This document shows positions 1,689-54,275 of a stretch of DNA of 64,000 nucleotides, piece by piece (position 1 is the first letter of the stretch; every line of letters begins with the position of its first letter). The DNA comes from Minisyncoccota bacterium (GTDB lineage: Bacteria > Patescibacteriota > Minisyncoccia > Phycocordibacterales > UBA9973): contig JBAYHJ010000003.1 of the NCBI GenBank assembly GCA_041666225.1, forward strand, positions 17,116 to 81,115, written 5' to 3'. The notes beneath the pieces are model-generated. The model was given only the letters and a program-made list of their open reading frames with translations, was not told the origin of the DNA and did no database searches. The translations under genes were made by a program, and so were the position numbers.

Positions 1689-1922
1689 ATGACGATTATA
1701 GTTAAAGTATTGCCTTATATACAAATTATACTATCTATTATTTTAGTAGTTGCAATTTTACTTCAGCAATCTAGTGCTGGAGTTGGAGGGGCATTAGGAG
1801 GTGGAGACGGGGGTGGACTATATAGTACACGTCGTGGTTTTGAGAAATTTCTTTTTATTTTAACGATAATTATTGGTATTTTTTTTGTTGTATCATCGTT
1901 TGTGGCTATATTCATCAAATAA
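1689..1922 (+). CDS. secG: Preprotein translocase subunit SecG
   Basis: 77 aa with two TM helices flanking a Gly-rich loop (LLQQSSAGVGGALGGGDGGG..RRG), which is typical of SecG. Confidence 0.7.
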   Translation: MTIIVKVLPYIQIILSIILVVAILLQQSSAGVGGALGGGDGGGLYSTRRGFEKFLFILTIIIGIFFVVSSFVAIFIK

Positions 1923-1947
1923 TCGAAGATTAAAATCTCTAATCTAA

Positions 1948-3768
1948 TTGTTTTTATTGTGTGTTTTTATGCATAAATTTATTCTATTCATTAAAGAATT
2001 TCATTTTTACAAGAAAAAAGAACTACTCGAGGCTGCAGCATCTTTCTCTGATAAACTTTTTCTTATCTTTGTAGCAATTTTATCTATTGCTATTATTTTA
2101 GTGACAATTATTGTGGGAAAAGTGAATTCCATGTTTTTAGTCAATGTGCCTATAACAGGTGGAACAGTAACAGAAGGTATCATCGGTGTTCCAACTTTAG
2201 TTAATCCAGTTATTGCAATATCTGATGCTGATAAAGATTTAACTTCACTTGTTTATTCTGGTTTAATGAGAAAAGATTCAGAAGGAAATTTTATCCAAGA
2301 TTTAGCAGAATCATATAATATTTCTCCTGATGGTATTAATTACACTTTTACGATAAGAAAAGATGCAAAATTTCATGACGGAACAAAGATAACTGCAGAT
2401 GATATTATATTTACGATTGAAAAAATAAAAGACCCAACCATTAAAAGTCCTCGCAGAATGGGCTGGGATGGAGTTAATGTGAGTAAAAAAGATGATTACA
2501 CTGTTGTCTTTACACTTGCACAGTCATATATATCATTTTTAGACAACATGACAATTGGTATACTTCCATCAGCCCTATGGAAAGATATAAAACCAAATGA
2601 ATTTAATTTATCTCCTTTAAACACAAAAGCAATAGGATCAGGTCCTTATAAAATAAAATCGGTAACTAAAGATGATAATGGAATATCACAAGAATATAAA
2701 CTTGAGCGTTTCAGTAACTTCATGCTTGGTAAACCAAATATTAAATATTTTAATATAATTTCTTTTGCTAATGAAAAAGATTTAATAAAAGCACTCTTAA
2801 ATCACTCTATTGATCAAGCGGGTGGAATTAGTTCAGAAAATATGAATGAGGTAAAAAAAGAAAAATATAAAGTATATGAAGCTACACTACCTCGAATATT
2901 TGGAATATTTTTTAATAGTAATAATAATAAAATATTTACCGATCAAGCAGTTATACAATCCATAAATAAAGCATTAGATCGACAAGCTGTGGTAAACCAA
3001 GTTTTGGGTGGTTATGGTTCTAATATTTATGGCCCAATACCAGAAAAAATTATTCAAACTGAAAATAAAATTACTTATGATGAATCGACCTTAAACGAAG
3101 CTCGTCAAATATTGGACAAGGCTGGTTGGGTTATCGGAGAAGATGGTATTCGCAAAAAAGGAGGTTCTGTAAGTAAAACAATTACAAAAAAAGTTGGGAA
3201 GAAAACAGTAACTCAAACAATTAAAAGCACTTCCCCTTCTATTCGTTTAAGCTTTTCTCTAACGACAGGTGATACTCCAGAGCTTAAACAAACAACATTA
3301 TTGATAAAAGAACAATTGGCAAAAATTGGAATAGAAGTGGACACAAGTAAGATATATGAGACAGGTCAATTAAATCAAATTATTAGAGCCCGAAATTATG
3401 AAGCACTTTTCTTTGGGCAAATTGTAAATCATGAATCCGATTTATATTCTTTTTGGCATTCATCTCAAAGAACAGATCCTGGTTTAAATATCGCGATGTT
3501 CAACGATAAGAAGGCTGATGCAATTCTTGAATCAATTCAGAAAACACTAAAATTCGAAGAGCGCACAGATAAATATAAAGCTCTTGAAAATGAATTCGAT
3601 AAAAATATACCTGCTATTTTGATTTACTCTCCCAAATATTTATATGTAACATCCCCTAACCTTAACAACATCTTACTTAAGAATATAACGGTGCCCTCAG
3701 ATCGTTTTACTTCAGCTTACAATTGGTATGCTGATACGGACAAAGTCTGGAAAATTTTTACTAAATAA
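1948..3768 (+). CDS. ABC transporter substrate-binding protein, family 5 (peptide/nickel type), membrane-anchored
   Basis: About 600 aa with an N-terminal signal-anchor. The domain layout resembles OppA/DppA-like solute-binding proteins. The true start is probably a few codons downstream. Confidence 0.7.
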   Translation: MFLLCVFMHKFILFIKEFHFYKKKELLEAAASFSDKLFLIFVAILSIAIILVTIIVGKVNSMFLVNVPITGGTVTEGIIGVPTLVNPVIAISDADKDLTSLVYSGLMRKDSEGNFIQDLAESYNISPDGINYTFTIRKDAKFHDGTKITADDIIFTIEKIKDPTIKSPRRMGWDGVNVSKKDDYTVVFTLAQSYISFLDNMTIGILPSALWKDIKPNEFNLSPLNTKAIGSGPYKIKSVTKDDNGISQEYKLERFSNFMLGKPNIKYFNIISFANEKDLIKALLNHSIDQAGGISSENMNEVKKEKYKVYEATLPRIFGIFFNSNNNKIFTDQAVIQSINKALDRQAVVNQVLGGYGSNIYGPIPEKIIQTENKITYDESTLNEARQILDKAGWVIGEDGIRKKGGSVSKTITKKVGKKTVTQTIKSTSPSIRLSFSLTTGDTPELKQTTLLIKEQLAKIGIEVDTSKIYETGQLNQIIRARNYEALFFGQIVNHESDLYSFWHSSQRTDPGLNIAMFNDKKADAILESIQKTLKFEERTDKYKALENEFDKNIPAILIYSPKYLYVTSPNLNNILLKNITVPSDRFTSAYNWYADTDKVWKIFTK

Positions 3769-3780
3769 AATAAATAAAAT

Positions 3781-5763
3781 ATGAATGAAATACCAAAAAA
3801 AATCGTAAACCCTAAATCTAAAAGTGGTCAAAAGTTTAATTACAAAAAACAAGGGAATATCCGTGTCTTGCATAAACCACAGCAACCTATAACCAAAATA
3901 GTAAGTACAACAAAACAAACTTCCTATAGTAGTGATAGACCAAAAGGAACAAATAAAAAAATAAGTCGCGGAAGTTATCAATATAGTAATAATAAAGGTA
4001 ATCGTAGACCTAAGGCAGAAGTCCAAACTATAAACAATAAACCAACTTTTTCCAAAAATAAACCAACACCTATTCCACCGCCAGAGAAGGGAGTTATTCG
4101 AATAATTCCTCTCGGTGGAGTTGAAGAAATTGGGAAAAATATGACTGCTATTGAAATCGGTGATGATATTATTGTCATCGATGCTGGTATGCAATTTAAA
4201 ACTGAAGATACACCTGGAATCGATTACATTATCCCAAACACTACTTATTTAGAAGAAAGAAAGGATAAAGTAAAAGCGATGTTGGTAACCCATGGGCACT
4301 TAGATCATATAGGAGGTATTCCTCTAGTCATGAGTCGTATTGGTAATCCCCCGCTATATTCTAGAAATCTTTCTGTATTAGTAATGAAAAAACGACAAGA
4401 AGAATTTCCTCACTTGCCACCCCTAAACTGCCAAATTGTTGAAAAAAATTCTGTTATTACAGTTGGTAATTTGCGTATCCGTTTCTTTGGAGTAACACAT
4501 ACAATGCCTGACTCTATGGGTATAGTTATTGAAACACCATATGGATCAATCGTAACTCCAGGAGATTATAAATTAGATCAAATTGACGGAGTAGTTAGCG
4601 ATGAAGAAGAAAAAGAATATGCATTTTTTGATAAAGAAAAAGTTCTCTTACTTTTAACAGATTCCACAAATATTGAGAATGAAGGATTCTCTCTTCCAGA
4701 AGTTAGAGTTCATGAGGGACTAGATAAGGTTATAAGACAAGGAACTGGTAGAATTATTATTTCGGCTTTTGCCTCATCTATTACTCGTCTTATGAAAATT
4801 GTTGAAATTGCAGAATCTTTGGGTAAAAAAGTTGTTCTTGATGGAAGGTCACTTAAAACAAATATGGAAGTTTGTGAATTAGCGGGAATCTTCACTCCAA
4901 AAAAGGGTACAATTATTCCAGTTGAAGATGTAGACAAATACCCTCCCAATAAAGTTCTTATCATGATGACAGGTGCTCAAGGAGAAGAATTTGCGGCCCT
5001 TGGTCGTGCTGCAAATAAAACTCATAAAAAATTTCAAATTCGCCCGGGTGATACAATTATTCTTTCTTCTTCTATTGTTCCTGGAAATGAAATAGCTGTA
5101 CAACACCTAAAAGATAATTTATCTCGTCATGGAGTTCGTATTATAAGTTATCGAACAAGTGAAGAATATATTCATGCGACTGGACATGGGAACCAAGAAG
5201 ATATTAAGTGGTTACATAAAAAAACTCATCCTAAATTTTTTATTCCTATACACGGCTGGCATTCAATGCTTGTAAAACACAAAGAAGTAGCTATGTCTAT
5301 CGGTATGTCAGGAGATAATATTATTGTTCCAGACAATGGCTCAATTATTGAAATAGTTGATAATGGAGAAAAGATGATTCTTCGTAAAGAAAAAGCACCA
5401 TCAGGCCCAATGATGGTGGATGGATTCTCTGTTGGAGATGAACAAGATGTTGTGATCAGAGATAGAGTCATGCTTGCTCAGGATGGAATGTTTGTTCTTA
5501 TTGCCACAATTGATTCTACTTCTGGAAAATTAAGAAAATCTCCAGATATAATATCTCGTGGTTTTATTTACCTAAAAGAAAATCAGGAATTACTCCACCA
5601 AGTCAGGTTGATAATTAAGAAAACCGTTGAGGATGAAACAAATGGAATGAACCCAATCAATTTTGATGTTATTAAAACTGCCCTCGGTGACAACATCTCA
5701 AAATTCCTTTTCCAAAAAACAGCCAAGCGACCTATTGTCATCCCAGTATTATTAAGTATTTAA
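3781..5763 (+). CDS. rnj: Ribonuclease J (metallo-beta-lactamase/beta-CASP) with an N-terminal basic low-complexity extension of about 100 aa
   Basis: HGHLDHIGG motif, beta-CASP region and an RNase J C-terminal domain. The N-terminal 100 residues are K/N/P-rich. Confidence 0.9.
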   Translation: MNEIPKKIVNPKSKSGQKFNYKKQGNIRVLHKPQQPITKIVSTTKQTSYSSDRPKGTNKKISRGSYQYSNNKGNRRPKAEVQTINNKPTFSKNKPTPIPPPEKGVIRIIPLGGVEEIGKNMTAIEIGDDIIVIDAGMQFKTEDTPGIDYIIPNTTYLEERKDKVKAMLVTHGHLDHIGGIPLVMSRIGNPPLYSRNLSVLVMKKRQEEFPHLPPLNCQIVEKNSVITVGNLRIRFFGVTHTMPDSMGIVIETPYGSIVTPGDYKLDQIDGVVSDEEEKEYAFFDKEKVLLLLTDSTNIENEGFSLPEVRVHEGLDKVIRQGTGRIIISAFASSITRLMKIVEIAESLGKKVVLDGRSLKTNMEVCELAGIFTPKKGTIIPVEDVDKYPPNKVLIMMTGAQGEEFAALGRAANKTHKKFQIRPGDTIILSSSIVPGNEIAVQHLKDNLSRHGVRIISYRTSEEYIHATGHGNQEDIKWLHKKTHPKFFIPIHGWHSMLVKHKEVAMSIGMSGDNIIVPDNGSIIEIVDNGEKMILRKEKAPSGPMMVDGFSVGDEQDVVIRDRVMLAQDGMFVLIATIDSTSGKLRKSPDIISRGFIYLKENQELLHQVRLIIKKTVEDETNGMNPINFDVIKTALGDNISKFLFQKTAKRPIVIPVLLSI

Positions 5764-6952: not shown

Positions 6953-7631
6953 ATACCTCGCACTTAAAAATTATTCCACTCGTGTTGGTGGAGATGAACT
7001 TATTAAAAAGGGTCTAGTTTTTATCAATGGCAAAAAAGCAGTCCTGGGTGATAAAGTTTATGAAAATGATGAAGTAAAAGTAAATTCTAAAGGAGCAAAA
7101 AAAGAATATGTTTATTATGCATACAATAAAGACATAAATGTTTCTACAAACCCAGACACAACTAGTAAAGATATCTTACAAGTTACCAGATTCCCTGTCC
7201 GCGTATTTCCTGTTGGACGTCTTGATAAAGATTCACATGGATTAATATTGATGACCAATGATGGCCGTGTGACAGACCGATTACTTTCCCCTCGCTATGT
7301 CCACGAGAAAGAATACACAGTAAAAGTTGATAAGCCATTTTCAGATACCTTTATAGAATTAATGCAAAATGGAGTTCACTTCGATGGATTCATCAGTAAA
7401 AAATGTAAAGTTTGGAGGCAACCTAAATCTAAGGATATCTTTCACATAGTGCTCACAGAGGGCAAGAAACGTCAAATAAGACGCATGTGTGAAGCATTAC
7501 ACCACAATGTCATAAATCTTAAAAGAATACGCATTTTAAATATTGAATTAGGTAAAATTCCTCTCGGTGAATGGAGAGAAATCAAAGGAAAAGAATTAGA
7601 TGAACTTTTAAGACAATTAAATCTAATATAA
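6924..7631 (+). CDS. rRNA pseudouridine synthase, RsuA/RluB family
   Basis: S4 domain followed by the GRLDKDSHGLILMTNDG catalytic motif and the EGKKRQIRRM motif. Confidence 0.85.
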   Translation: MIIYPVRINKYLALKNYSTRVGGDELIKKGLVFINGKKAVLGDKVYENDEVKVNSKGAKKEYVYYAYNKDINVSTNPDTTSKDILQVTRFPVRVFPVGRLDKDSHGLILMTNDGRVTDRLLSPRYVHEKEYTVKVDKPFSDTFIELMQNGVHFDGFISKKCKVWRQPKSKDIFHIVLTEGKKRQIRRMCEALHHNVINLKRIRILNIELGKIPLGEWREIKGKELDELLRQLNLI

Positions 7632-7676: not shown

Positions 7677-8864
7677 TTAATCTTCAAATCCTACCTTATG
7701 ACGACTCTCAATTCCAAAAACACCGTCAGGAGTAAGTCCATTTTCTTTTTGCCATTCAATTAATTTTTGTTTTGTCATTGGCCCAAAAGATCCATCTTCT
7801 AGTATTTCCAATATTGCTTGAAGAAGTTTAACGTCATCTCCTTTTATTCCATGCTTTAGTGTTCTTGAAATTCCATAATTTCTCACACCACAATTAGACC
7901 CTGGTTCTGTACAAATCTTTTTATCATCTTTCTTATCATCATCAACTACTGGACAAATCTCCCCTGTCATTGGGCTAAACTTATACCCAGGTAGACATCC
8001 ATCATTTACTAACTCAGTAGAGCAAGGTAGTCCTGTCATTGGACTAAATTTAAATCCAGGTAAACAACCCTTAATCTCTTTTTCAGTTGAATCTAATACT
8101 TTCACACTTAAACTTGTTTCAGCACTTCCTCCATTCGAAGGACATGGGGTTGTAATACACCTAACAGTATTCTCACTTGTTACTCTAAATACAGGAGTAA
8201 ATGTTCCTACCCGTCCATAACTATGGGTAAATGTTGCTGATTGTTGATAATCCTTAATAGGTGGCATTATTGAAGTAGTGGACGTTGAATAAAGAGGTTC
8301 ATCTCCCCAAACTACATAATAGGAAAGATTCCCTCCCGTTGGAGCTGAAGCTTTTACTTCCCATTCCCCTTTTTGATCTACTTTTAATATTTGAGGACCC
8401 TTAACTCCTGAAATAACTGGATTATTTGAGACAGAAGAAGTGGTAGTAAAATAATTATCACTTTCATCTTTAATTCCTGAAGAGGAGGATAATTCAATTA
8501 CATACCTTGATCCTGAAACAACTGAAACCGAATTCGGTCCAGTACTCGCTCCACTCATCTTCTTACTTGTATCCCATAAATAACTGCCTGTATTTTTAAC
8601 GGTATCTATATAAAATTGAGTTTGACACCCAACCATAGGAGCTGAGCCACAACTTATACCATAATATTTTAGGTTTATAGTGATATCAGAATTACTATCA
8701 AAATTATCTGAATCCCATCTTATATTATATTTCTGACCAACTTGAATTGTTTCCCCACCATTTGGAGAAATGACTGTGATTGAAGGTTGAAAAGATTCAG
8801 CTTGAACCTTAAAACCAACAATAATAAAACTAAAAACAAATAGACCTATTAATAACTTTTTCAT
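7677..8864 (-). CDS. Secreted PKD-like domain protein with a C-terminal peptidoglycan-binding domain
   Basis: Signal peptide; a YYVVWGDE..FTHSYGRVGTF PKD-like motif; a duplicated GCLPG(F/Y)KFSPMTG repeat; C-terminal PG_binding_1-like region (GPMTKQKLIEWQKENGLTPDGVFG). Confidence 0.6.
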   Translation of the reverse strand: MKKLLIGLFVFSFIIVGFKVQAESFQPSITVISPNGGETIQVGQKYNIRWDSDNFDSNSDITINLKYYGISCGSAPMVGCQTQFYIDTVKNTGSYLWDTSKKMSGASTGPNSVSVVSGSRYVIELSSSSGIKDESDNYFTTTSSVSNNPVISGVKGPQILKVDQKGEWEVKASAPTGGNLSYYVVWGDEPLYSTSTTSIMPPIKDYQQSATFTHSYGRVGTFTPVFRVTSENTVRCITTPCPSNGGSAETSLSVKVLDSTEKEIKGCLPGFKFSPMTGLPCSTELVNDGCLPGYKFSPMTGEICPVVDDDKKDDKKICTEPGSNCGVRNYGISRTLKHGIKGDDVKLLQAILEILEDGSFGPMTKQKLIEWQKENGLTPDGVFGIESRHKVGFED

Positions 8865-8936
8865 AAAAATTTTATTTGAAAAATTAAAACTAATAATATA
8901 TCGACATTATACACTAAATTAGTGCATAAATAACAA

Positions 8937-8966
8937 AACCCACTACTTATGACGTAGTGGGGATTG
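8937..8966 (-). terminator. Terminator of the rpsF-ssb-rpsR operon
   Basis: CCCACTAC-GTCATAA-GTAGTGGG hairpin followed by a T-tract on the minus strand, directly after the rpsR stop. Confidence 0.6.
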
Positions 8967-8983
8967 AAATCTTACATGGTTAA

Positions 8984-9184
8984 CTATTTTGCGATATATG
9001 GCAACAGTCCCATAAATCTTGCACGCTTGATCGCTTCAGCCAATTTTCTTTGATTCTTAGCTGTCACGTCTGTACGTCTGCGAGACTGAATTCGAGCAGA
9101 AGGAGATAGAAATCTTTTTAGAACTTCTACATCTTTATAGTCAATATGTTTTATATTGTTTGATGAAAAATAATCTTGTTTCAT
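8984..9184 (-). CDS. rpsR: 30S ribosomal protein S18
   Basis: 66 aa with the characteristic S18 sequence [29 protein letters not shown]. Confidence 0.9.
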
Positions 9185-9224
9185 ATTTCTTAATTCTTAA
9201 TTAGTAATCAGTAATTGGTAATTA

Positions 9225-9683
9225 TTAAAACGGAATATCTTCCGCATTTATTTGTTCCTCTGGATATTCAATCGTATCAAGTCCACCTTCGTCTTCTTTT
9301 TGTGATGGTGATCCTTTGATGGTTTGATCAAAACTTCCACCAGTCTTTTGGCCACCACTTGAACCAAATTGAACTCTATCCGCGATAACTTCGGTACGAT
9401 ACTTTTTAGTATTTGTAGCAGCGTCATCCCAACTTCTTGTTTGCATACGACCCTCTACCATTACCTGACTACCTTTTTTCATATACTGAGCAACTGTCTC
9501 AGCCTGACGACCAAAGACAACTACATTGTGATAATCGGCTGCTTCTTGTTTTGCACCATTTTTATCTTTCCAAACACGATTTGTCGCGACTGAAAAACTG
9601 CATACTTTCATTCCAGAGGGGATAGCTTTCAATTCTGGATCTCGTGTTAAATTTCCTATTATAAATACTTTGTTTAAATACAT
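9225..9683 (-). CDS. ssb: Single-stranded DNA-binding protein
   Basis: OB-fold N-terminus (MYLNKVFIIGNLTRDPEL), Gly-rich linker and acidic C-terminal tip ending DIPF. Sits between rpsF and rpsR. Confidence 0.9.
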   Translation of the reverse strand: MYLNKVFIIGNLTRDPELKAIPSGMKVCSFSVATNRVWKDKNGAKQEAADYHNVVVFGRQAETVAQYMKKGSQVMVEGRMQTRSWDDAATNTKKYRTEVIADRVQFGSSGGQKTGGSFDQTIKGSPSQKEDEGGLDTIEYPEEQINAEDIPF

Positions 9684-9796
9684 ATGTGAATATGTAGTAT
9701 GTAGAGTGTAGAAAGTAGAAAGGAAAAACTAATTTGTTTTTAACCCCTACTACTTACTACCTACTACTTCCTACCTAATATTTATTAATAATCCTA

Positions 9797-10297
9797 TTAT
9801 ACCACGAGAGCATCTATTTCCTTGTCTATAACTTCTTCATTAATAGGACCAGTCTCTTCAGTCTTTATAGCTGGGCGACGTCTATTGTTACCATCTTGCT
9901 TGCCATAAGCACGTTTGACTGACATGGTATTCTCACGAACTGTTTTAATCATAAGATATCGAACAAGCTTTTCGTTCTTGTCCAAGATATCTTTTATAAT
10001 TTTAGCAGCTTCGGTCGTACATTCAAACTTTACCCAACCAAAATATCCATAAGAAAACTTTTGTTTCTTGTTATTAATAGAACGAGTCATTTCATAAGCT
10101 AATTCCATTAGTTTAGGATATTCATCAGAGATGAAAACAGCTCCTTTTTCTATAAACATATCTTTAAATATTGTGACTTCTTCACCTAAATTTTCTTCTG
10201 CGATTGTAGGCAACATCAAGTAACCTACTTCGTAAACGCTAAGACGAATTTCTTTTTCTTCGCCTACATTTTCTTCTACTATTTGCTTTTTTGCCAT
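9797..10297 (-). CDS. rpsF: 30S ribosomal protein S6 with an extended C-terminus
   Basis: YEVGYLMLP core and classic rpsF-ssb-rpsR gene order. Confidence 0.8.
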   Translation of the reverse strand: MAKKQIVEENVGEEKEIRLSVYEVGYLMLPTIAEENLGEEVTIFKDMFIEKGAVFISDEYPKLMELAYEMTRSINNKKQKFSYGYFGWVKFECTTEAAKIIKDILDKNEKLVRYLMIKTVRENTMSVKRAYGKQDGNNRRRPAIKTEETGPINEEVIDKEIDALVV

Positions 10298-10416
10298 AAG
10301 ATAATGCGTAAAAACGCGATAAATTGTTAATTTTAATACTATCTCGCTATGGACCAGTGTGTACCGACTTCAGGGTCGGTACAAACGAGATAAGACATAT
10401 ATTAACAAAAAAATCT

Positions 10417-11337
10417 CTAAATGTCAAAAAGTCGCTTTGCATTAGCAATTATAGCTTTTGCAACCTCCTCTTCATTTAAACCCTTGATTTCAGCTATTTT
10501 TTTGACTATCTCTCTCACATACACGGGCTCATTTCGCTTTCCTCTATGGGGCACTGGAGCCACATATGGGCTATCTGTATCAGTAAGTATCATATCTAAA
10601 GGTGTTTCTTTAATAACCCCAGTATAATCACAAATCTCCGGTTTTGGTTTATAAGTAATAGGCCCAGCAAATGAAATATAAATTCCTATTTCCACAAATC
10701 TTTTCATATCTTCTACACTTCCAGCAAAAAAATGCGACACCCCAATTGTTGGAAGTCCGACTTCCAACAATCTAGTTGAATGCTTTTTAATTAATTCATA
10801 AACATCAAAATAGGCATTGTGAGTTTTATCCGTTCCGTTATTTCGAACATGCAACATCAGGGGTAAACCAAGTTCATTGGCAAGTTCTATCTGAGCGATG
10901 AATGCAGTTTTTTGTTTTTCAATACTATCTTCATCTAAGTGGTAGTAATCAAGACCACATTCCCCTATCCCAACTACTTTGCCGAGCTTCGCAAGTTCTC
11001 TGTATTTCTCTTTATCAAATATTTCACCACGAGAAGTGAACTCTTGTCCTTCTTCTCCTAACTCACTAACATCATGATATGAAGCTCCAGTATGAATCGG
11101 ATGAAGTCCAATTGTTGCATAAACTCCTTCTGGATAATCATCGGTCATCTCAACTGCTTTTTTTGAAGTATCATATTGAGTGCCAATATTTATCACCCAA
11201 GTATTATTTTCCAAGGCACGAGAAATAACCGCATCTCTATCTTCTTCAAATGCTTTAAAATTTGTATGCGCATGTATATCTATGTATTTAAGCATAAAGT
11301 AAATATAGCATTTATAGGTAAAAAGAAAACCACCCAA
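10417..11337 (-). CDS. TatD-family metal-dependent deoxyribonuclease/hydrolase
   Basis: 306-aa TIM-barrel hydrolase with an N-terminal IDIHAHTNF His motif and conserved His/Asp/Glu residues. Confidence 0.8.
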   Translation of the reverse strand: MGGFLFTYKCYIYFMLKYIDIHAHTNFKAFEEDRDAVISRALENNTWVINIGTQYDTSKKAVEMTDDYPEGVYATIGLHPIHTGASYHDVSELGEEGQEFTSRGEIFDKEKYRELAKLGKVVGIGECGLDYYHLDEDSIEKQKTAFIAQIELANELGLPLMLHVRNNGTDKTHNAYFDVYELIKKHSTRLLEVGLPTIGVSHFFAGSVEDMKRFVEIGIYISFAGPITYKPKPEICDYTGVIKETPLDMILTDTDSPYVAPVPHRGKRNEPVYVREIVKKIAEIKGLNEEEVAKAIIANAKRLFDI

Positions 11338-11367
11338 AAAGTGGTTAACTTTTTAAGTGGTCAGATT

Positions 11368-11709
11368 TTAATTATCTTGTGTTTCTTCATCTTCTTCTCC
11401 ATTATCAGGCATAAAATATAAAAGTGAGGCTGTAGTAACACCTGATGCAAGCCCTAATACGCTTTCAGCTCCACTAATAGTTTGTAATTCTGGGGGAAGA
11501 ATGAACAATATTATACTTTTTATACCAATTATAATAGCCACACAAGCTGTTGTAATTAATAAAGAAAGATATACTGCTTTCAGATATTCAAGAATTTTTT
11601 TTGTTTTCATTTGTTTTGGATTTAGAATTGTTAAACATAAGATTTTTAAAAACTCCTTTTTAAAAGAATCTTTAAAAATCCTACGTCTACAAAAAATCCC
11701 AAATATCAA
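11368..11709 (-). CDS. Small membrane protein (hypothetical)
   Basis: ORF with two TM helices and an acidic C-terminus. The likely start is the internal MKTKKILEYLK. Confidence 0.3.
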   Translation of the reverse strand: MIFGIFCRRRIFKDSFKKEFLKILCLTILNPKQMKTKKILEYLKAVYLSLLITTACVAIIIGIKSIILFILPPELQTISGAESVLGLASGVTTASLLYFMPDNGEEDEETQDN

Positions 11710-11760
11710 AGAACTATACTATCTATATAGTATAGCATATTTGGAGTAGTATGTCAATAA

Positions 11761-13284
11761 CTAGTCTTTCCTTAAAAATAAAGGGTTTTCTGGTTTTTTG
11801 TTATCGCGGATTAATTGCTTTAGTTTTATATTTGTCTCTGGCATTATAGGATTTAGCATGCGAGCGATAGTGTAGAGTTTCAAAACTAAATCTTTAATCA
11901 TTTCCTTCCCTTTTTCTTCATCTACTTTCACAACTTTGAATGGTTGAGTTTCTTGAATTATTTTATCGAGTTCACTAATTTTTTCCCAAACATAATCAGC
12001 TGCTTTTTTCAAATCAAACTCTTCATAATTTTTGAAGTATTCTTTAAAATCTTCAAACTCAGGAATTTCTGGACACTTATCTAAATACTTTTCAGACAAA
12101 GTTAAAATGCGAGAAGATAAATTCCCCAATCCATTTGCAAGTCCTGAATTGTAAGCATCTTTAAATCGCTCAATCGTAAAGGGACTATCTTCAAAACTTC
12201 CCACTTCACGAAGAAGGAAATATCGAAGCGCATCTGTTCCATATTCAGCAACTACATCTCTAGGGTCTACGACATTACCAAGAGTTTTAGACATTCGTAT
12301 TCCACCCTCACCTGTTATAAAACCATTCACTATTATTTGGTGAGAATTTGGAACATCAGCAGCCATCAGCATCGCTTGCCACATGGCACTTTGAAAACGA
12401 GTATTGTCTTTACCACAATATTGAGTTGGTGTTCCATTCACCCAATATTTTTCAAAATTGGATTCCTCGCCCCCTGCTAAGGGGGAGATGCCGGAGGCAG
12501 AGGGGGTCTGGTTTGGCCACCCCAATGTTGAAATATAATTTACCAAAGCGTCAAACCATACATACATAACTTGGTTCTCATCCCCAGGTACTGCTATCCC
12601 CCATGGCATTTTCTCTTTCAATCGAGAGATTGAAAAATCTTGCAGGCCACTTTTAACAAAGTTTTTAATTTCATTTAAGCGAAATTCTGGAACAACAAAA
12701 TTTGGGTTTTTTTCATATAGTTCAAGTAGTCTATCTCCAAATGCAGAATATTTAAAGAAATAATTTTCTTCATTTATTATTTTAAGAGGAGTACCTGGGT
12801 GGTCAACGCATTCTCCATTTACAAGTTCACTATCAGTCTTTTCACTTTCACAACCAACACAATATTTAGCTTCATAAGTTTTTTTATAAATATATCCATT
12901 GTCAGATACCCTCTTCCAAAATTCTTGAGCCGCTTTTTCGTGATTTTTGTCAGTCGTACGAATATAATGGATATCATCACAAACACCAAACATTTTTAAT
13001 TGCTCTTTGAAAGTTACAAATCCAGCGTCGACAAATTCTTGGGCTGTTTTACCTTGTTCTTTGGCTTTCTCAAATATCTTTAAACCATGTTCATCGGTTC
13101 CAGTATTAAAATACACATCATAACCAATAAGCTTTTTATAACGAGCGATAGTATCAGCACGGACAAATTCAAGGGCATGACCCATGTGAAGTGGTGCATT
13201 TACATAAGGAAGAGTAGTTGTGAGATAAAACGATTTCTTCATATTATTCAGTCTTGGAGAGAATTTTTTTCTTTTCCAAATCAT
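11761..13284 (-). CDS. metG: Methionyl-tRNA synthetase
   Basis: Class I HIGH-type motif (PLHMGHALEF) and KMSKT motif. The likely start is the internal MKKSFYLTTTLPY. Confidence 0.9.
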   Translation of the reverse strand: MIWKRKKFSPRLNNMKKSFYLTTTLPYVNAPLHMGHALEFVRADTIARYKKLIGYDVYFNTGTDEHGLKIFEKAKEQGKTAQEFVDAGFVTFKEQLKMFGVCDDIHYIRTTDKNHEKAAQEFWKRVSDNGYIYKKTYEAKYCVGCESEKTDSELVNGECVDHPGTPLKIINEENYFFKYSAFGDRLLELYEKNPNFVVPEFRLNEIKNFVKSGLQDFSISRLKEKMPWGIAVPGDENQVMYVWFDALVNYISTLGWPNQTPSASGISPLAGGEESNFEKYWVNGTPTQYCGKDNTRFQSAMWQAMLMAADVPNSHQIIVNGFITGEGGIRMSKTLGNVVDPRDVVAEYGTDALRYFLLREVGSFEDSPFTIERFKDAYNSGLANGLGNLSSRILTLSEKYLDKCPEIPEFEDFKEYFKNYEEFDLKKAADYVWEKISELDKIIQETQPFKVVKVDEEKGKEMIKDLVLKLYTIARMLNPIMPETNIKLKQLIRDNKKPENPLFLRKD

Positions 13285-20276: not shown

Positions 20277-23200
20277 CTATTTTACCAAATTTACGATAAA
20301 TACCAAGCTATCAATTTTTATTTCTTGACCATTGTTTTCTTTAATTTTTATTTCTCTCACGTTAACTGTTTTTAAAAATTCATCCTTAAATTGATTTATC
20401 AATTCCTGACCTTCAACACTTGTTTCAATAACCAATGTGATAATATCATTTGGATTTAATCCATTCTTTTTTCTTATATCTTGTATGGCACGAACAAGCT
20501 CACGATAATTCCCTTCTTGTTTGAGTTCTTCGGTTAAATTTAGATCGAGTTCTACTTTCTTTTCATCACCCTTATCATACTTCAAATTTTTAACATTAAG
20601 TTCGTCTTTAATTATTTCTTCGTATTCAGTTGGTAATTCGTAATTCGTAATTATTAATTCTCTTAGTGGTTGCCTAACTGGAATTCCAGATTTTTGACGA
20701 GCTTGCAAGCCAAGAGAAACAATCTCTCTTGCTTTTTTCATTTCATCAATAACTTTTGTATTAATATTATCTATTGTAATATCTAAAAAGAAATCAGTCA
20801 GATGAACACTTATTGGATCAGATGAAAATCTAATTTTCTTCCAAATTTCTTCCGCAATAAAAGGCATAAAAGGTGCAAAAAGTTGAACCGTTACTTTTAA
20901 AACAAAATATAAAGTATGCTTTGCGTCTTCATTGCCATCTTTTAATCGATCACGGGAACGGCGTAAATACCAGGTTGAAAGGTCTTCAATAAATACCTCA
21001 AAAGGTTTCGTTGCTTGTGCCAAATCATATGCCTCCATACCATTTTTGACCTCAAGAACAAACTGTGATGTCCGAGCAATTATCCATTGATCGAGAACAT
21101 TTTTTGAAACTTCATATGATTGATCTTCAGTGTTTTGATTTCTATATAATTCATAGAAAGAGACAACATTATCAAACCTATTAATTATTTTACTAGATAC
21201 TTCTTGGACGAGTTTTTCAGAGAAATTTACATCTTCCCCCTTCATCAAAGTACTAGCCATCAGATAGAACCTGAGAGCGTCAACTCCGTACTTATCAAAT
21301 AAAAGCCAAGGATCTGGGAAATTATTTTTAGACTTGGACATCTTGCTTCCATCTTCTGCAAGGACTGTCCCTGTAGTTACAACATTTTCAAATGGAGCCT
21401 TCCCAAACAATATAGTAGAAATAGTGTGAGTATAGTAGAACCAAGTTCTCGTCTGGGCAATATATTCTGCTACAAATCCTGCTGGAAAATTATCTTTCTG
21501 CCAATCTGGATTCTCAAATGGATAGTGATCCTGTGCAAAAGGCATTGATCCTGACTCAAACCAACAATCTATAACTTCTGGAATTCTTTTGTATTCTTCA
21601 CCCTTTTCATCAATAAGTACTATTGAGTCAATATATGGGCGGTGCAAATCAAGCTCATAATCTTTATTATGAGGAAGAACTACAAAGTTTAATTCTCTTA
21701 TCTCGGCATTCTTCAAGTATGGAGGAAAATTTTCATCAGTAGGAAGTGTCTCGTAAGAGAAGCCTTGTACTACATGGCAAAGTGCACTAGTCTCCCCTGC
21801 ATGACCTATAAGGAGAATATTCTTACCGGAATATTGGCTATCTATTTCATAAATCATTTTCCCTACTCGATTAATAACTTGCGAATAACTCTCTCCGTTT
21901 GGCATCGCTTCAAATGGATGCTCCTTGTACTGATTACAATAAAATTCTTCGAAAGCTTCTCGCGACTTTCCTTCGTAATCCGAACTTACATCCCATTCTT
22001 TCTCAAGGTCGTTATAGATAATTTTATCCAGTGGATAGCCAATCTGCTCACAAAGAATTTTCGTAGTTTCTTTGGTTCTCTCTAAAGGAGATGCTATAAC
22101 TACGTCAACTTTCTCTTTGAAATTTTTTGCACTTTCTGTCACTTGCTCTACCCCAACTTTCGTAAGTTTACAATTATTGGATTCTTCATCTTCCATCACA
22201 ATCTCACTAACGTTGCATTCTGCTTGCCCATGACGCATGACCCAATACTTATTCCCTGACTTTTTAACTTTTGACTTTAAATCTTCAAGAGAATTCACTA
22301 CCATTATCTTACCACTTTCTGATTTCCAAATAGGAAGCGGGCTCGCCCAATAACGATTGCGGGAGATAGTCCAATCAGGAGCACTCTCCATAGTATTCTT
22401 GAAACGTCCCTCTTTTAAATGTTCAGGAATCCAATTCATATCTTCACCTTTTTTCAGTAGACTATCTTTAACTTTTTGTATATTTATAAACCAAGATGGT
22501 AGTGCATAATACAGAAGAGGTGTCTCACAACGATAACAGTGCGGATATGAGTGAATGATTTTCTCTTTTGCAAAGAGAGCTCCAGTGTGTGCCAGATATT
22601 TAATAATTAGAACATCTGTAGACTGCGGATCTTCCTTTGGTTTCACTTTTACATTTGGAAAGTCAGTTACCTCTTTTGAAAAATCTCCGTTGGGCTCCAC
22701 ATGACGAATAAATGGGATATCGTGCTCTTTTGCCAAGCCCATATCATCTTCACCAAAAGCTGGCGCTTCATGAGCAATCCCTGTCCCCTTATCTACTGTC
22801 ACAAAATCTGCATGCCAAACTTTCCAAATATTAGGATTTTTAGCTACTTCTTCATTTTTATAATATGGGAATACTGGCTCATAAGAAAGACCTACTAAAT
22901 CTTCCCCTTTTACTTCTTTTATTATTTCTCCATTATCAAATTTACTCTGTAAATTTTCATACAAATCTTTCGCTACTACATATACCTCTTCGCCTTTTTC
23001 TGTAATATTTTTTACTAAAATATAAAGCAATTCTTTATTTATAGCTATTGCAGTATCCCCTGGTAATGTCCAAGGAGTTGTAGTCCAAGCAAGTAAATAT
23101 GTATCTTTATATTTTTCATCTAAAATTTTAAATTTAACATATACAGAAATATCAGTAATATCCTTATAACTATTATCCATAGCAATTTCAGAATTTGCTA

Positions 23201-23762
23201 TTGGGGTCTCACAGCGTGGACAATAAGCAAGAACTCTTACTCCTTCGTAAAGTAATTCTTTTTTATTCATCTCACCCAATGCCCACCAGACACTTTCTAT
23301 GAAAGTGTTGTCCATAGTTTTATAAGAATTATCAAAATCCACCCAGCGACCCATACGATCTACTGTTTTCTTCCATTCATTTACATATGTTAGAACTTTA
23401 CTACGAGCATGCTCGGTAAATTTATCAATACCTAGAGCCTCAATAGCCTTCTTTCCAGAAATACCCAAATCTTTCTCTACAATATTCTCAATTGGCAATC
23501 CATGGCAATCCCAACCCCAACGACGAGGAACATTGTACCCACTCATAGTTTTGTATCTACCTATCACATCCTTTACTGTACTTCCAAGTATATGCCCATA
23601 ATGAGGAAGTCCTGATGCAAAAGGTGGCCCATCATAAAATACATACTTTCCCTTCGGTGCATCTTTCTCCAAACTCTTCTCGAAAATTTTATTTTCTTTC
23701 CAGAATTTTAAAACTTCTTCTTCTCGAAGCGCACTATTTGTTTTTTGATTTTTGTCCTCCAT
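20277..23762 (-). CDS. ileS: Isoleucyl-tRNA synthetase (type 2) carrying an inserted histidine-phosphatase (PGM-family) domain
   Basis: PPFASGLPHYGHIL motif, GWDCHGLP, WTISRNRYWASPLPIW and KMSKS. The W-to-KMSKS distance is about 330 aa against about 130 typical. The inserted residues (about 504-700) carry RHG, SPLERTKETT and GHAGE motifs. Confidence 0.9.
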   Translation of the reverse strand: MEDKNQKTNSALREEEVLKFWKENKIFEKSLEKDAPKGKYVFYDGPPFASGLPHYGHILGSTVKDVIGRYKTMSGYNVPRRWGWDCHGLPIENIVEKDLGISGKKAIEALGIDKFTEHARSKVLTYVNEWKKTVDRMGRWVDFDNSYKTMDNTFIESVWWALGEMNKKELLYEGVRVLAYCPRCETPIANSEIAMDNSYKDITDISVYVKFKILDEKYKDTYLLAWTTTPWTLPGDTAIAINKELLYILVKNITEKGEEVYVVAKDLYENLQSKFDNGEIIKEVKGEDLVGLSYEPVFPYYKNEEVAKNPNIWKVWHADFVTVDKGTGIAHEAPAFGEDDMGLAKEHDIPFIRHVEPNGDFSKEVTDFPNVKVKPKEDPQSTDVLIIKYLAHTGALFAKEKIIHSYPHCYRCETPLLYYALPSWFINIQKVKDSLLKKGEDMNWIPEHLKEGRFKNTMESAPDWTISRNRYWASPLPIWKSESGKIMVVNSLEDLKSKVKKSGNKYWVMRHGQAECNVSEIVMEDEESNNCKLTKVGVEQVTESAKNFKEKVDVVIASPLERTKETTKILCEQIGYPLDKIIYNDLEKEWDVSSDYEGKSREAFEEFYCNQYKEHPFEAMPNGESYSQVINRVGKMIYEIDSQYSGKNILLIGHAGETSALCHVVQGFSYETLPTDENFPPYLKNAEIRELNFVVLPHNKDYELDLHRPYIDSIVLIDEKGEEYKRIPEVIDCWFESGSMPFAQDHYPFENPDWQKDNFPAGFVAEYIAQTRTWFYYTHTISTILFGKAPFENVVTTGTVLAEDGSKMSKSKNNFPDPWLLFDKYGVDALRFYLMASTLMKGEDVNFSEKLVQEVSSKIINRFDNVVSFYELYRNQNTEDQSYEVSKNVLDQWIIARTSQFVLEVKNGMEAYDLAQATKPFEVFIEDLSTWYLRRSRDRLKDGNEDAKHTLYFVLKVTVQLFAPFMPFIAEEIWKKIRFSSDPISVHLTDFFLDITIDNINTKVIDEMKKAREIVSLGLQARQKSGIPVRQPLRELIITNYELPTEYEEIIKDELNVKNLKYDKGDEKKVELDLNLTEELKQEGNYRELVRAIQDIRKKNGLNPNDIITLVIETSVEGQELINQFKDEFLKTVNVREIKIKENNGQEIKIDSLVFIVNLVK

Positions 23763-24093: not shown

Positions 24094-25647
24094 TCAACAC
24101 ACTTCCTGCTGATAACATTTTTCACAATATATAATTTCTGATCGGTCTGGGGCATAACTCGTCTCAAATTCGTTAGTACAACCTTCTTTCATACAGGATC
24201 TGTACCAGAGCTTCATAGGATTAAGTTTTTTTGTTCTTGATATATGCCTACAATGAAAACATCTTCTAGGAATTGGAATATTCATCTTCTTATAAAAAGT
24301 TAGTTCACTAGCTACAATCTTATAATTTCTTCCACATTCTATGCAACCAAGTATTTCATCTAATATACTATCACCAATTTCATTTATAGAATCTGGAATA
24401 TTTTTATAAAATAGAGTTTCTTTATCTGATGTTTTCTGAATATTATCCTGCCACCCATATCCTTTTTCTATTGCTTCTTCTTTATTTAAAGGATAATTAT
24501 TTATCGCAATTGTTTCATTGTATCCAAAAGGTGAAATTTCTGAAGGAAAAAATTCACCATATTTATATATAACTCCATTTTTATCAACATATGGCATATC
24601 ATTCATGTGTTCTATAATTTTTGGTAATAATTCTTCATATTCTTTTTTTGTATATTGTTTATTTAAAATAGAATAACTATCATTACGGAGAGCATCACAC
24701 CCAAAAATATGTTTACAATTATGACAATGTTGAGTATATCTTATATCCTGACTCTTCACAGAAAATAAACCAAAAAAGTTTAATTGGGAATGATCTACAA
24801 CTTCCCCTTCATAACACTCAGAAAGTTCTCCTGACATCGTTAAATCATAAGAATCTTTCTGGATACCACCAAAATCAGAATATTTACAATTTTCACATTT
24901 CTTTAATACAAAAGATTTTTTAGTGTTTTTAGAATAAGAAATAATATCCCCTGAGCAATCTAATGTCTGTTTAAACCAAGCAAAACGACGAGGGTAATTT
25001 AAAATAAATTCACTATACTCATTTTTAGTTTTCTCTACACTAGAAAATGTATCTAGTTTATACTTTCCTAAAATCTTTTCATATTCTTCTTTTGTATACT
25101 GTTCATTTTTAAAACAATATTTTTTGTTTCGTAGACCACAACACATAAAACAATTGGAGCAATCCTTACAATCATATAAGAATTGTGAATCTATACACGC
25201 TCTACTAAATTCTGAATATTTAAGTCTATATCCATGAGTACAGTTGATGCATTCATATACAAACTCAGTTTCTGCAAAATTTAATAAACAATCTACAATT
25301 TCTTTTCCAGCATTAATAAAATAACCATACATGACATTCTCAATATGCCACCCAGAAAAAACCATATAGCAATTTTTTGAAAACCAAACATCATGAGTAT
25401 ATTCGCAATTCATGCTAGCAATACCATCATCATTTACGAGAGCCATGTGTGGAATTCTTTTCATTAAATCTTGGAATTGAATAAAGAACGGTTTACTAAA
25501 ATCATAATCAACCCCATATTTTTGGATCCCATTTATCACTCCACCAGCACTTATTACAATAAATAGTAATACCAGATTCAAATGAATATAAAGAAATAAC
25601 AGATTTATCACACAAATCGCACTTTCTTGTATAAAGAGACATAACAT
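24094..25647 (-). CDS. Cysteine-rich repeat protein with a C-terminal CxxC zinc ribbon (probably continuous with 25508-25792 after a frameshift)
   Basis: Many CxxC pairs; an internal repeat C.NC..F.C..LRN..Y..N.QYTK.EYE..L.K occurs twice; C-terminal CIECGRNYKIVASELTFYKKMNIPIPRRCFHCRH. The in-frame N-terminal 60 aa look non-genuine, so the start is probably at M62 (near 25464) or the ORF is fused to the upstream one. Confidence 0.5.
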   Translation of the reverse strand: MLCLFIQESAICVINLLFLYIHLNLVLLFIVISAGGVINGIQKYGVDYDFSKPFFIQFQDLMKRIPHMALVNDDGIASMNCEYTHDVWFSKNCYMVFSGWHIENVMYGYFINAGKEIVDCLLNFAETEFVYECINCTHGYRLKYSEFSRACIDSQFLYDCKDCSNCFMCCGLRNKKYCFKNEQYTKEEYEKILGKYKLDTFSSVEKTKNEYSEFILNYPRRFAWFKQTLDCSGDIISYSKNTKKSFVLKKCENCKYSDFGGIQKDSYDLTMSGELSECYEGEVVDHSQLNFFGLFSVKSQDIRYTQHCHNCKHIFGCDALRNDSYSILNKQYTKKEYEELLPKIIEHMNDMPYVDKNGVIYKYGEFFPSEISPFGYNETIAINNYPLNKEEAIEKGYGWQDNIQKTSDKETLFYKNIPDSINEIGDSILDEILGCIECGRNYKIVASELTFYKKMNIPIPRRCFHCRHISRTKKLNPMKLWYRSCMKEGCTNEFETSYAPDRSEIIYCEKCYQQEVC

Positions 25648-25792
25648 TTCTCCATGTATGTCTTCTTTGACGTCTACATTCCGGACAAAAAGTAGGAGGT
25701 GGAACTTTCATTTTTTCATAAAAACCAAAATCATCAGATTCAATTATGAAGTCTTTTTTACAGTTCTGACAATTTTTTGTTTGTGATTTCAT
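25508..25792 (-). CDS. Zinc-ribbon protein (likely the N-terminal part of the frameshifted Cys-rich protein)
   Basis: CQNC-x24-CPEC ribbon with the FYEKMKVPPPTF motif mirrored at the C-terminus of the downstream ORF. It overlaps the downstream ORF in another frame at an A5/G4 homopolymer. Confidence 0.5.
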   Translation of the reverse strand: MKSQTKNCQNCKKDFIIESDDFGFYEKMKVPPPTFCPECRRQRRHTWRNVMSLYTRKCDLCDKSVISLYSFESGITIYCNKCWWSDKWDPKIWG

Positions 25793-25797
25793 AAAAA

Positions 25798-26316
25798 TTA
25801 AAACATTCTACTTATTTTTTCTGCAATGTCTTCTGAACTTTCTAAGTCTGTTCTAAAAGCTATAGCCTTAAGATTTTTTTCTTTATTAAAAATTTCATAA
25901 AGTTCCTTGAATCTATCAACTGATAAATTTGATATTTTTCTATCTTCCTTTGGCACTTTTAAAGCACTCTCTACTCTTTCATTAAATCTTTTTAATAAAA
26001 CTTCAAAATCTGCCTCTAAATTAATTTCAACAACCTCATAGTTCTCTTGCTTGGCTAAATCAATTAACTTTTGTCTAAATTCTCTCGTAAGAGATGAATC
26101 TGAAATAATATTATATTTCATACTAAAAGTTTCTTTAGCCACAGCCAGTACAATTTTCTGCACATCTTTATAATACTTATCTGATTTATATTTAGAAAAA
26201 GACCATTTTAAATAATCATAGGATAAATGGAATAAATTCTCATTATTTTTCATTAATATTTTAATAACAGAACTTTTTCCTGAGCAAGAACTCCCATTTA
26301 AAATTATTATTTTCAT
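25798..26316 (-). CDS. P-loop kinase (AAA_33 / chloramphenicol-phosphotransferase-like family)
   Basis: Walker A motif GSSCSGKSS at the N-terminus; 172 aa. Confidence 0.55.
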   Translation of the reverse strand: MKIIILNGSSCSGKSSVIKILMKNNENLFHLSYDYLKWSFSKYKSDKYYKDVQKIVLAVAKETFSMKYNIISDSSLTREFRQKLIDLAKQENYEVVEINLEADFEVLLKRFNERVESALKVPKEDRKISNLSVDRFKELYEIFNKEKNLKAIAFRTDLESSEDIAEKISRMF

Positions 26317-26325
26317 ATTATTTTT

Positions 26326-26577
26326 TTATTTATTTTTAATCCAATATCTTTTCACAACAGGAATTGATTGTGTAGAAATAATAAACCCAAGTACTGGTAT
26401 TAAAGCACTTAAATATGATTTTGAAAATCCCATACTAAATAAAACAAAAAAGGCAATAATATAAGTAATAATACTTATAGATAAAATTCGAACAAAACTC
26501 GTCTCCCAAGCTTTATCGAGCTCTACTCTTTTATTCCTTTCTTCTATCTTATTTAATCTTTCTTCTATTGTTTCCAT
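26326..26577 (-). CDS. Small membrane protein (hypothetical)
   Basis: 83 aa with two TM helices, co-oriented within the argS-downstream gene string. Confidence 0.35.
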   Translation of the reverse strand: METIEERLNKIEERNKRVELDKAWETSFVRILSISIITYIIAFFVLFSMGFSKSYLSALIPVLGFIISTQSIPVVKRYWIKNK

Positions 26578-53723: not shown

Positions 53724-54275
53724 TTATTTCTTCTTTTTTGCTACTACTTTTTTTACAGGAGCTTTCACTGTTACAGCTTTTTTTGCAACAGCTTTTACAA
53801 CTGGAGCTTTTTTGATTTCAACTTTCTTTACTTCGGCAACCTTAACTACAGGTTTTGATTCTGTTTTAGGTGTAATTAATTTTTCTATTGCACTTGTAAG
53901 ACGATCAAGTTTTGTACTTATTTCACTTAATTGTTTTGAAACACCGTCATTTGATGGCATTGTTGCAGGTTTAGTAAATGATGGAGCTTGCCTATCACTA
54001 AAATCTCTTTTATGTCCATTATCTCTAAATTCACGTCGTGGGGCACGATCGCCGTCATCACGCTTATTACTAAAACAATCTGAACAGTAAACAGGTTTAT
54101 CACCTGATGGACGGAAAGGAACTTCACAACTCTTGTGACATTCATCACAAGTTGCTTTGTGCATTGAAACTTCTCTTCTGTCTCCTCCACGATTGCCACC
54201 AAAACTTGGTCTGCCACCACCATTACCACCCCTAAAACCACCTCCTCTATTACCTCCTCCTTGAAAATTTCCCAT
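53724..54275 (-). CDS. RGG-box / CxxC-x17-CxxC zinc-ribbon protein with a histone-H1-like Lys/Ala/Val/Pro-rich tail
   Basis: N-terminal GNRGGGFRGGNGGGR; CDECHKSCEVPFRPSGDKPVYCSDCF; C-terminal KAPVVKAVAKKAVTVKAPVKKVVAKKKK. Confidence 0.55.
   Translation of the reverse strand: MGNFQGGGNRGGGFRGGNGGGRPSFGGNRGGDRREVSMHKATCDECHKSCEVPFRPSGDKPVYCSDCFSNKRDDGDRAPRREFRDNGHKRDFSDRQAPSFTKPATMPSNDGVSKQLSEISTKLDRLTSAIEKLITPKTESKPVVKVAEVKKVEIKKAPVVKAVAKKAVTVKAPVKKVVAKKKK

Follow-up and report, generated by a model that had tools for sequence, protein, structure and literature searches.

A frameshifted, probably recently broken gene of an undescribed Patescibacteria protein family with predicted zinc modules and twin solenoids

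The closest relatives on record for the gene treated here form an unnamed family of Paceibacteria and Nomurabacteria, whose members are listed as “hypothetical proteins” (A3D42_01240, A2W67_03535 and WC662_04125 among others) and share with it the same predicted two-zinc modules and twin solenoids. The copy under study lies on the reverse strand of a 64,000-nucleotide stretch of DNA (hereafter the window) from a Minisyncoccota bacterium (contig JBAYHJ010000003.1, positions 17,116 to 81,115), and, unlike many of these relatives, which stand in tandem arrays, it is solitary and has lost 2 nt at codon 92. Two other described systems offer partial likenesses. With the zf_Tbcl and zf_Tbcl_2 domains (PF13451, PF23477) the protein has in common the pattern CxxC-x24-CxxC with FYxK...P.P..C..CR, although it scores below the threshold and the domain amounts to only about 8% of the family protein. 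With the classical genes that use a programmed +1 frameshift (prfB type), the likeness is that a +1 shift can bring the two frames together, but the shift site is not conserved, neither an in-frame stop nor a rare codon stands at that place, and the arrangement is conserved in none of the relatives.

The two reading frames and the site where they part are the following:

25508-25792, minus strand: upstream open reading frame (ORF) of 94 amino acids (aa), ending in the stop codon TGA at 25508-25510 according to the ORF list
24094-25518, minus strand: downstream reading frame, corresponding to ancestral residues 92-565 plus the stop codon
25516-25523, minus strand: lesion site, where the window reads CCA AAA A directly followed by TAT GGG, and relatives read CCA AAA A(G/A)T TAT GGG

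The upstream ORF is made up of ancestral residues 1-91, which comprise the complete N-terminal two-zinc module, followed by three out-of-frame residues (IWG), and it matches the family profile in hmmsearch at positions 2-91 of 559, with the downstream frame matching at positions 90-558. As a mechanical ORF the downstream frame extends upstream of 25518 (24094-25647, minus strand, 517 aa) and overlaps the first one in a different frame, exactly as described in the original prediction, which was made from the letters of this DNA and a list of its ORFs. NCBI annotates the upstream ORF as a separate hypothetical protein (MFA6514900.1) and the downstream frame as a 481-aa protein with a GTG start (MFA6514899.1), that is, it lists two hypothetical proteins where one broken gene stands. 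Across the junction the coding strand reads TGG GAT CCA AAA ATA TGG GGT TGA (window allele around it: CCAAAAATATGGGG), where the A5 run occupies 25519-25523 and the G4 run 25512-25515. The removal of one A from the A5 run joins SDKWDPK to YGVDYDFSKPFF and yields a fused protein of 565 aa, in agreement with what had been anticipated; its cysteines, which had been put at more than 40, number 36 in our count.

Homology searches show that a frameshift has divided one gene, which in its intact form would encode about 566 aa, into these two ORFs. A search with the fused protein retrieved at least about 8,000 relatives, all of them from Patescibacteria and typically encoded by one ORF of about 565-585 aa. 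The best 120 of these matches share 63-83% identity with it, the top ones having an E of 0; nearly all are 564-615 aa long and in one piece, and their sources are named Candidatus Paceibacterota, Nomurabacteria or “Patescibacteria group”. Among the matches listed, nearly every relative is covered to 99-100% by the fused protein, a homology to proteins of about 566 aa that is collinear from end to end. A family profile run against 1.84 billion cluster representatives found 4,365 clusters (at 50% identity) with E<=1e-3, 1,842 of them with E<=1e-30, and the match again runs end to end for nearly all of the best 150 clusters. When the six-frame ORFs of 85 related loci were compared with the family profile, 170 intact full-length copies were found and none of them needed a frameshift. 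The orthologues are thus single continuous ORFs, as the original prediction expected of a frameshifted gene, and the two-gene arrangement is fixed in no lineage; the window copy, interrupted at 25516-25523, is not a single uninterrupted ORF.

The family appears to be confined, as far as sampled, to the host-dependent, small-genome Patescibacteria, and these comparisons point to conservation of the intact gene throughout the Paceibacteria-type lineages, the sampled orthologues being strongly conserved (60-80% identity) and all from Patescibacteria. It is also undescribed: literature searches found no account of it, there was no match above threshold in Pfam, NCBIfam, PADLOC or PHROGs, and searches of PDB sequences with the fused protein gave nothing significant, which bears out the earlier impression that the protein belongs to no characterised family. 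Counting over 4,000 clusters at the 50% identity level, it ranks among the larger families that still lack a description.

The comparison with relatives also defines the lesion. Each of the 50 relatives in the alignment runs through the junction without a gap and has DPK[S/N/D]Y there, one residue more than the fused protein. At the DNA level, the window has GAT CCA AAA A TAT GGG GTT GAT where one relative (L018) has GAT CCA AAA AGT TAT GGG GTT GAT, and another (L005) reads CCC AAA AAT TAC GGG, in line with the second form seen among relatives, CCC AAA AAT TA[CT] GG. Because the extra residue is present in 50 of 50 relatives and their DNA agrees with it, the window must lack two bases of one codon, and the historical event would have been a net deletion of 2 nt (equivalently, a +1 shift), not a 1-nt change in a homopolymer. 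A single-base deletion does restore the frame but leaves the protein one residue short. Of the original proposal, a 1-nt frameshift at an A5/G4 homopolymer, the frameshift therefore holds and the 1-nt homopolymer change does not.

Apart from this site the gene looks intact. In a test that included the 16 putative zinc-ligand cysteines, all of which are kept, the fused protein preserves 105 of the 106 invariant residues of the family (the exception is S156G), against a range of 0-4 broken columns among intact members, and it breaks 8 of 148 near-invariant columns, where intact members break 1-13. In its close relatives and cluster-mates P0124 (from L005) and P0123 the junction is uninterrupted and the disabling lesion absent, as expected of a recent pseudogene. 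Since so few conserved columns are broken and these relatives are intact, the lesion is best regarded as recent.

The same frameshift occurs in a 65-kb contig from ENA (L001, ERZ27249449), which differs from the window by one single-nucleotide polymorphism (SNP) in 7,554 bp. That lone difference, A versus G, lies at window position 21954 inside ileS, and because of it the two are distinct consensus sequences; there is moreover an offset between them, which indicates that the window was cut from a different contig. This concordance bears on the possibility of a sequencing or assembly error, in which the real genome would hold an intact gene of 566 codons and the indel would stem from base-calling or consensus building. 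Such an origin would suit the low-complexity context of the lesion (A5/T/G4) and the perfect conservation of the rest of the gene, and an orthologue in a metagenome-assembled genome (L061) does carry a frameshift in a T9 run, the type of lesion expected from homopolymer errors. However, a loss of 2 nt relative to all relatives is not the gain or loss of one base in a homopolymer, and the lesion is common to two assemblies that are one SNP apart. The name of the ENA contig (k141_...) further suggests a short-read MEGAHIT assembly. The window as a whole, 88.5% of which lies under ORFs of at least 100 aa, has 779 homopolymer runs within intact ORFs and no sign of indel errors elsewhere, and longer runs of this very gene (A6 and A7) are intact. 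A homopolymer sequencing error, one of the three options in the original prediction, is weakened by these observations and we hold it to be unlikely.

What probably took place is a genuine, very recent and non-programmed mutation in this population, which left a fresh pseudogene or a split gene. Codon 92 (A(G/A)T, for Ser or Asn) would have lost two bases in this genome; translation would then stop three codons later, past the complete N-terminal zinc module, and the remaining 474 codons would be left in another frame with no convincing start signal. Of the three earlier options, the recent pseudogene, or else a split gene, is the best fit, and the two concordant assemblies give the lesion indirect support. 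Some points weigh against it: both assemblies may derive from the same read set and could share an error, and the absence of any decay beyond the lesion fits an artefact or a tolerated split equally well.

The third option, programmed recoding, would have a +1 ribosomal frameshift or transcriptional slippage on CCA-AAA-A produce the full-length protein. Mechanically, tRNA-Lys could slip by +1 on A-AAA-A, from one AAA to the other, and the product would be exactly DPK-YGVDYDF. But neither the 170 intact homologues nor the 50 orthologues in the alignment have a shift site at this place, a shift is required in none of the relatives, and the product would be short of a residue that is present in 50 of 50 aligned relatives. 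At 28 per 1000 in the window, ATA, the A-site codon, is common and does not qualify as a hungry codon, the in-frame stop comes three codons beyond the shift site, and the A5 run is one of 17 runs of five or more A in the gene, some of them longer. No stimulatory element was seen in the sequence, the downstream RNA structure not having been folded. An A5 run is also too short for efficient transcriptional slippage. Taken with the intact orthologues, these features make programmed frameshifting extremely improbable here.

Broken copies are found elsewhere in the family as well, in about 7 of 177 internal copies (~4%), each at a different site:

L006 (P0005), 4962-4964: TAG at codon 38, within the first zinc finger (CP-stop-CRR)
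L061: frame shifted within a T9 run at about codon 100
L033: frame shifted at about codon 230
L079: TAG near codon 340
L063: deletion at the N-terminal end, together with a TAA at about codon 407
L019, 5664-5964: remnant in which the N-terminal zinc finger is joined to the C-terminal module, the whole centre being deleted and the frame changed

The nonsense codons among them are not explicable as homopolymer errors, and the break in the window is, in itself, an ordinary one: a recently broken or split copy in a gene family subject to birth and death. Its significance is limited to annotation. P0005, with 82% identity, is among the closest relatives listed and has an intact paralogue immediately upstream (3096-4793). 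Selenocysteine insertion or stop-codon recoding in the relatives was considered and rejected, the stops (TAG, TAA, TAG) standing at Glu, Ser and a non-Cys position. The apparent truncation of P0101 is only a miscalled start codon, and in L038 a paralogue is interrupted at 7436-7449 by a run of N (a scaffold gap), which is an assembly gap and not a lesion.

These copies are relevant to a further reading, a tolerated split, according to which the 94-aa zinc module and a remainder of 470-480 aa would both be made, or the N-terminal module would be dispensable. The break falls exactly at a domain boundary, past the complete N-terminal module, neither part has decayed, and the NCBI annotation has two proteins; in addition, the lesions of three relatives are restricted to the first ~100 codons (TAG at codon 38 in L006, a frameshift at ~100 in L061, the N-terminal deletion in L063). 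Nevertheless, the downstream part has no convincing start or ribosome-binding site, since GGTGGA lies directly against the GTG, and a start at ATG 25647 would put 43 junk residues in front. A specific tolerance of N-terminal lesions was not established either, given that lesions also occur at about codons 230, 340 and 407 and that the sampling is biased towards N-terminal ones, because breaks in the middle of the gene lower the rank of a match. With two genes fixed in none of the lineages behind the 85 loci, we see a tolerated split as very unlikely, and retain the recent, non-programmed mutation as the preferred account.

Beyond the break, the gene draws further interest from its large undescribed family, an unusual architecture and a suggestive link to orphan ATPases resembling coupling proteins. 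In the fused protein the domains follow the order zinc module, first solenoid (M1), second solenoid (M2), connector or linker, zinc module. The predicted zinc sites are these:

25676-25771, minus strand: first zinc site, a predicted CxxC-x24-CxxC treble-clef finger with Cys 8, 11, 36 and 39
25547-25621, minus strand: second zinc site, a predicted second ribbon of the N-terminal module with Cys 58, 61, 79 and 82
24097-24369, minus strand: C-terminal two-zinc module with Cys 483/486/511/514 and 533/538/556/559, homologous to the N-terminal one

Sixteen cysteines would thus make up four putative CxxC...CxxC sites, and the others recur at the same position of successive solenoid repeats. The four cysteines of the first site are invariant, or nearly so, in relatives. 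Those of the second are invariant in the orthologue group but are not in the >=90%-conserved columns of A2, the diverse alignment, and they are absent from several paralogues. The CxxC-x24-CxxC ribbons reported at both ends are indeed there (Cys 8/11/36/39 and 483/486/511/514), and the two terminal modules are homologous, with 32% identity over 78 aa (tblastn E 7e-8) and an hhalign probability of 99% (E 4.5e-18). The symmetry that had been claimed for the protein stands to that extent; given the domain order, with a linker on one side only, it is not perfect.

The match to zf_Tbcl (PF13451) reaches 22.5 bits with E 1.1e-4, below the Pfam gathering threshold of 24. Among relatives, 26 of 50 match this domain at E<=0.1, with a best E of 1.3e-4, and P0002, at 19.6 bits, is also below threshold. 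Foldseek against viral models returned proteins labelled “putative zinc-ribbon domain” (probability 1.0, root-mean-square deviation 0.5 Å over 40 residues), a match of the zinc ribbon only, and the last C-terminal finger has a weak, non-significant resemblance to LIM/CRP (E 0.14). Across paralogues the terminal modules are somewhat better conserved than the solenoids, with a mean column identity of 0.52-0.61 versus 0.44-0.46.

Between the zinc modules lie the following segments:

25099-25422, minus strand: beta-solenoid M1, about aa 124-231, with about nine 12-residue repeats and ending in CxxCxxCxxC-GLRN
24997-25098, minus strand: pair of helices separating the solenoids (QYTKEEYEKIL...), less conserved than any other segment in the family
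24655-24996, minus strand: beta-solenoid M2, about aa 266-379, homologous to M1
24370-24654, minus strand: helix and mixed alpha/beta connector, about aa 380-474 in the AlphaFold2 (AF2) model

The internal repeat noticed in the original prediction corresponds to two homologous central domains (hhalign probability 98.7%, E 3.5e-16). With an alignment of 50 close relatives AF2 gave a poor centre (predicted local distance difference test, pLDDT, 66), which a diverse alignment cured: with 114 diverse family members the model reached a pLDDT of 92.2 and a predicted template-modelling score (pTM) of 0.91, and it shows a zinc-ribbon module at either end and, besides connecting helices, two long series of short strands. 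Autocorrelation of the profile is highest at lags of 12 and 24 and has a 3-residue sub-period, and both central domains can be written as about nine 12-residue rows of the form x3-[KE]-[ND]-[CS]-x-[YF]-x4. Modelling and periodicity together predict that the centre consists of two homologous, rod-like beta-solenoids of 12-residue repeats.

The PDB has no significant Foldseek match to this model, and the top weak ones are all left-handed beta-helix enzymes. LpxD, GlmU, LpxA and gamma-carbonic anhydrase are the only PDB folds retrieved for the centre, whose modelled strands are likewise spaced by six residues, but they do not superpose (best E 4e-3, TM about 0.1, root-mean-square deviation 11-22 Å), and the family has a register of 12 with a sub-period of 3 in place of their 18-residue coil (3 x 6). 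An 18-residue coil of the left-handed beta-helix kind, an idea prompted by Foldseek, was discarded after autocorrelation and stacking gave the 12/3 register, and the Hexapep models of Pfam have no match in the fused protein or in 50 relatives, even at E 0.1-1. Another likeness in periodicity is TmAFP (1EZG), the Cys-rich beta-helix of Tenebrio molitor with 12-residue coils, the family being equally built on 12 residues with Cys, Ser or Asn at every third position. Its profile match to residues 156-214 is weak and non-significant (E 1.4), and the 50 Foldseek matches listed do not include it. TmAFP itself is small, secreted and disulfide-bonded, whereas the family protein has no signal peptide and carries zinc modules. 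Two other ideas were dropped: that the solenoids mimic DNA, their isoelectric points of 5.0 and 8.0 not being strongly acidic, and that the family originates from defence systems or phages, for which PADLOC and PHROGs gave no match.

In many relatives the genes of this family are arranged in tandem, with up to eight copies in 13.7 kb (L017, L082, L085). Patescibacteria are known for their small genomes, and in such organisms eight tandem copies can fill most of a 13.7-kb stretch. At about 25-28 loci the array sits between scpA-scpB and mraY-ftsW-murG, and at others between dnaK and dnaJ. Examples of the latter order, with the array and ATPase between dnaK and dnaJ, are L061, L056, L066 and L043; scpA-scpB precedes the array in L002 (then mraY-ftsW-murG), L048 and L051 (then ATPase-dnaJ). 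The gene strings in which the arrays are inserted are otherwise housekeeping ones. In 25 of the 85 loci (L008, L010, L057, L071 and L061 among them) genes for soluble ATPases of the VirD4/TrwB/HerA type stand beside the arrays or in among their copies. These ATPase genes number 41 (PF10412, PF12696, PF01935, PF02534), every one on the strand of the family, with 29 direct adjacencies at gaps mostly below 100 nt. They come in a short form of ~500 aa and a long form of 700-920 aa with a zf_Tbcl_2 finger. In L010 they lie at 1921-3411 and 10035-12428, and the long form has a low-complexity tail there. A 2025 survey counted 5,713 VirD4-like homologues in 2,918 Patescibacteria genomes, only 148 of them near virB4, and left their role open (PMC12102498).

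The predicted architecture suggests, with low confidence, a cytoplasmic scaffold or adaptor. The conserved zinc modules would attach it to a common partner, and variable ligands would be bound by the solenoid faces, which vary more and carry Tyr/Phe and Lys/Glu ladders; likely candidates for the partners would be the soluble VirD4/TrwB-like ATPases interleaved with the family arrays in other genomes. A bolder and rather doubtful proposal would make these twin-solenoid zinc proteins the missing partners of the thousands of orphan VirD4-like ATPases, which would load, translocate or remodel the diversified rod-shaped paralogues as clients or adaptors. Against such a partnership, the idea comes from other genomes, whose loci share ancestry and do not give independent counts, the 64-kb window contains neither such an ATPase nor a paralogue, and no significant fold match from the PDB sequence and Foldseek searches supports any function. 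The linkage is therefore a lead and not a demonstrated function, one that could be tested for the role of the coupling-protein homologues that Patescibacteria carry away from type IV secretion systems. If the proposal were true, the dnaK-dnaJ and scpAB-mraY-ftsW-murG neighbourhoods would harbour a new, Patescibacteria-specific cellular system driven by ATPases, one of whose members would stand freshly broken in the window.

The single family copy of the window lies next to two other genes on its strand:

25798-26316, minus strand: P-loop kinase of 172 aa, Zeta_toxin/AAA_33/PNK-like
26326-26577, minus strand: small membrane ORF of 83 aa

The label of CPT/AAA_33-like kinase was well chosen (matches to Zeta_toxin and AAA_33 at about 1e-10, and to CPT at 4e-5). 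A functional link of the family to the kinase and the membrane protein is not supported, both being unique to this locus: a homologue of either stands next to the family in none of the 85 related loci, and the position of the kinase beside it was judged incidental. The ileS/argS/dut/tmk synteny of the window is shared by L009 and L079. Its isoleucyl-tRNA synthetase (20277-23762, minus strand, 1161 aa) has a histidine-phosphatase domain (His_Phos_1, PF00300, 87 bits) inserted at aa 507-674, and the ileS of L009 is similarly long, with a stop-to-stop ORF of 1192 aa at 7904-11479. Further along the window, at 53727-54275 on the minus strand, is a 183-aa protein with a strong zf_Tbcl_2 finger (PF23477, 60.9 bits), of the same type as the one in the long ATPases that adjoin the arrays elsewhere.

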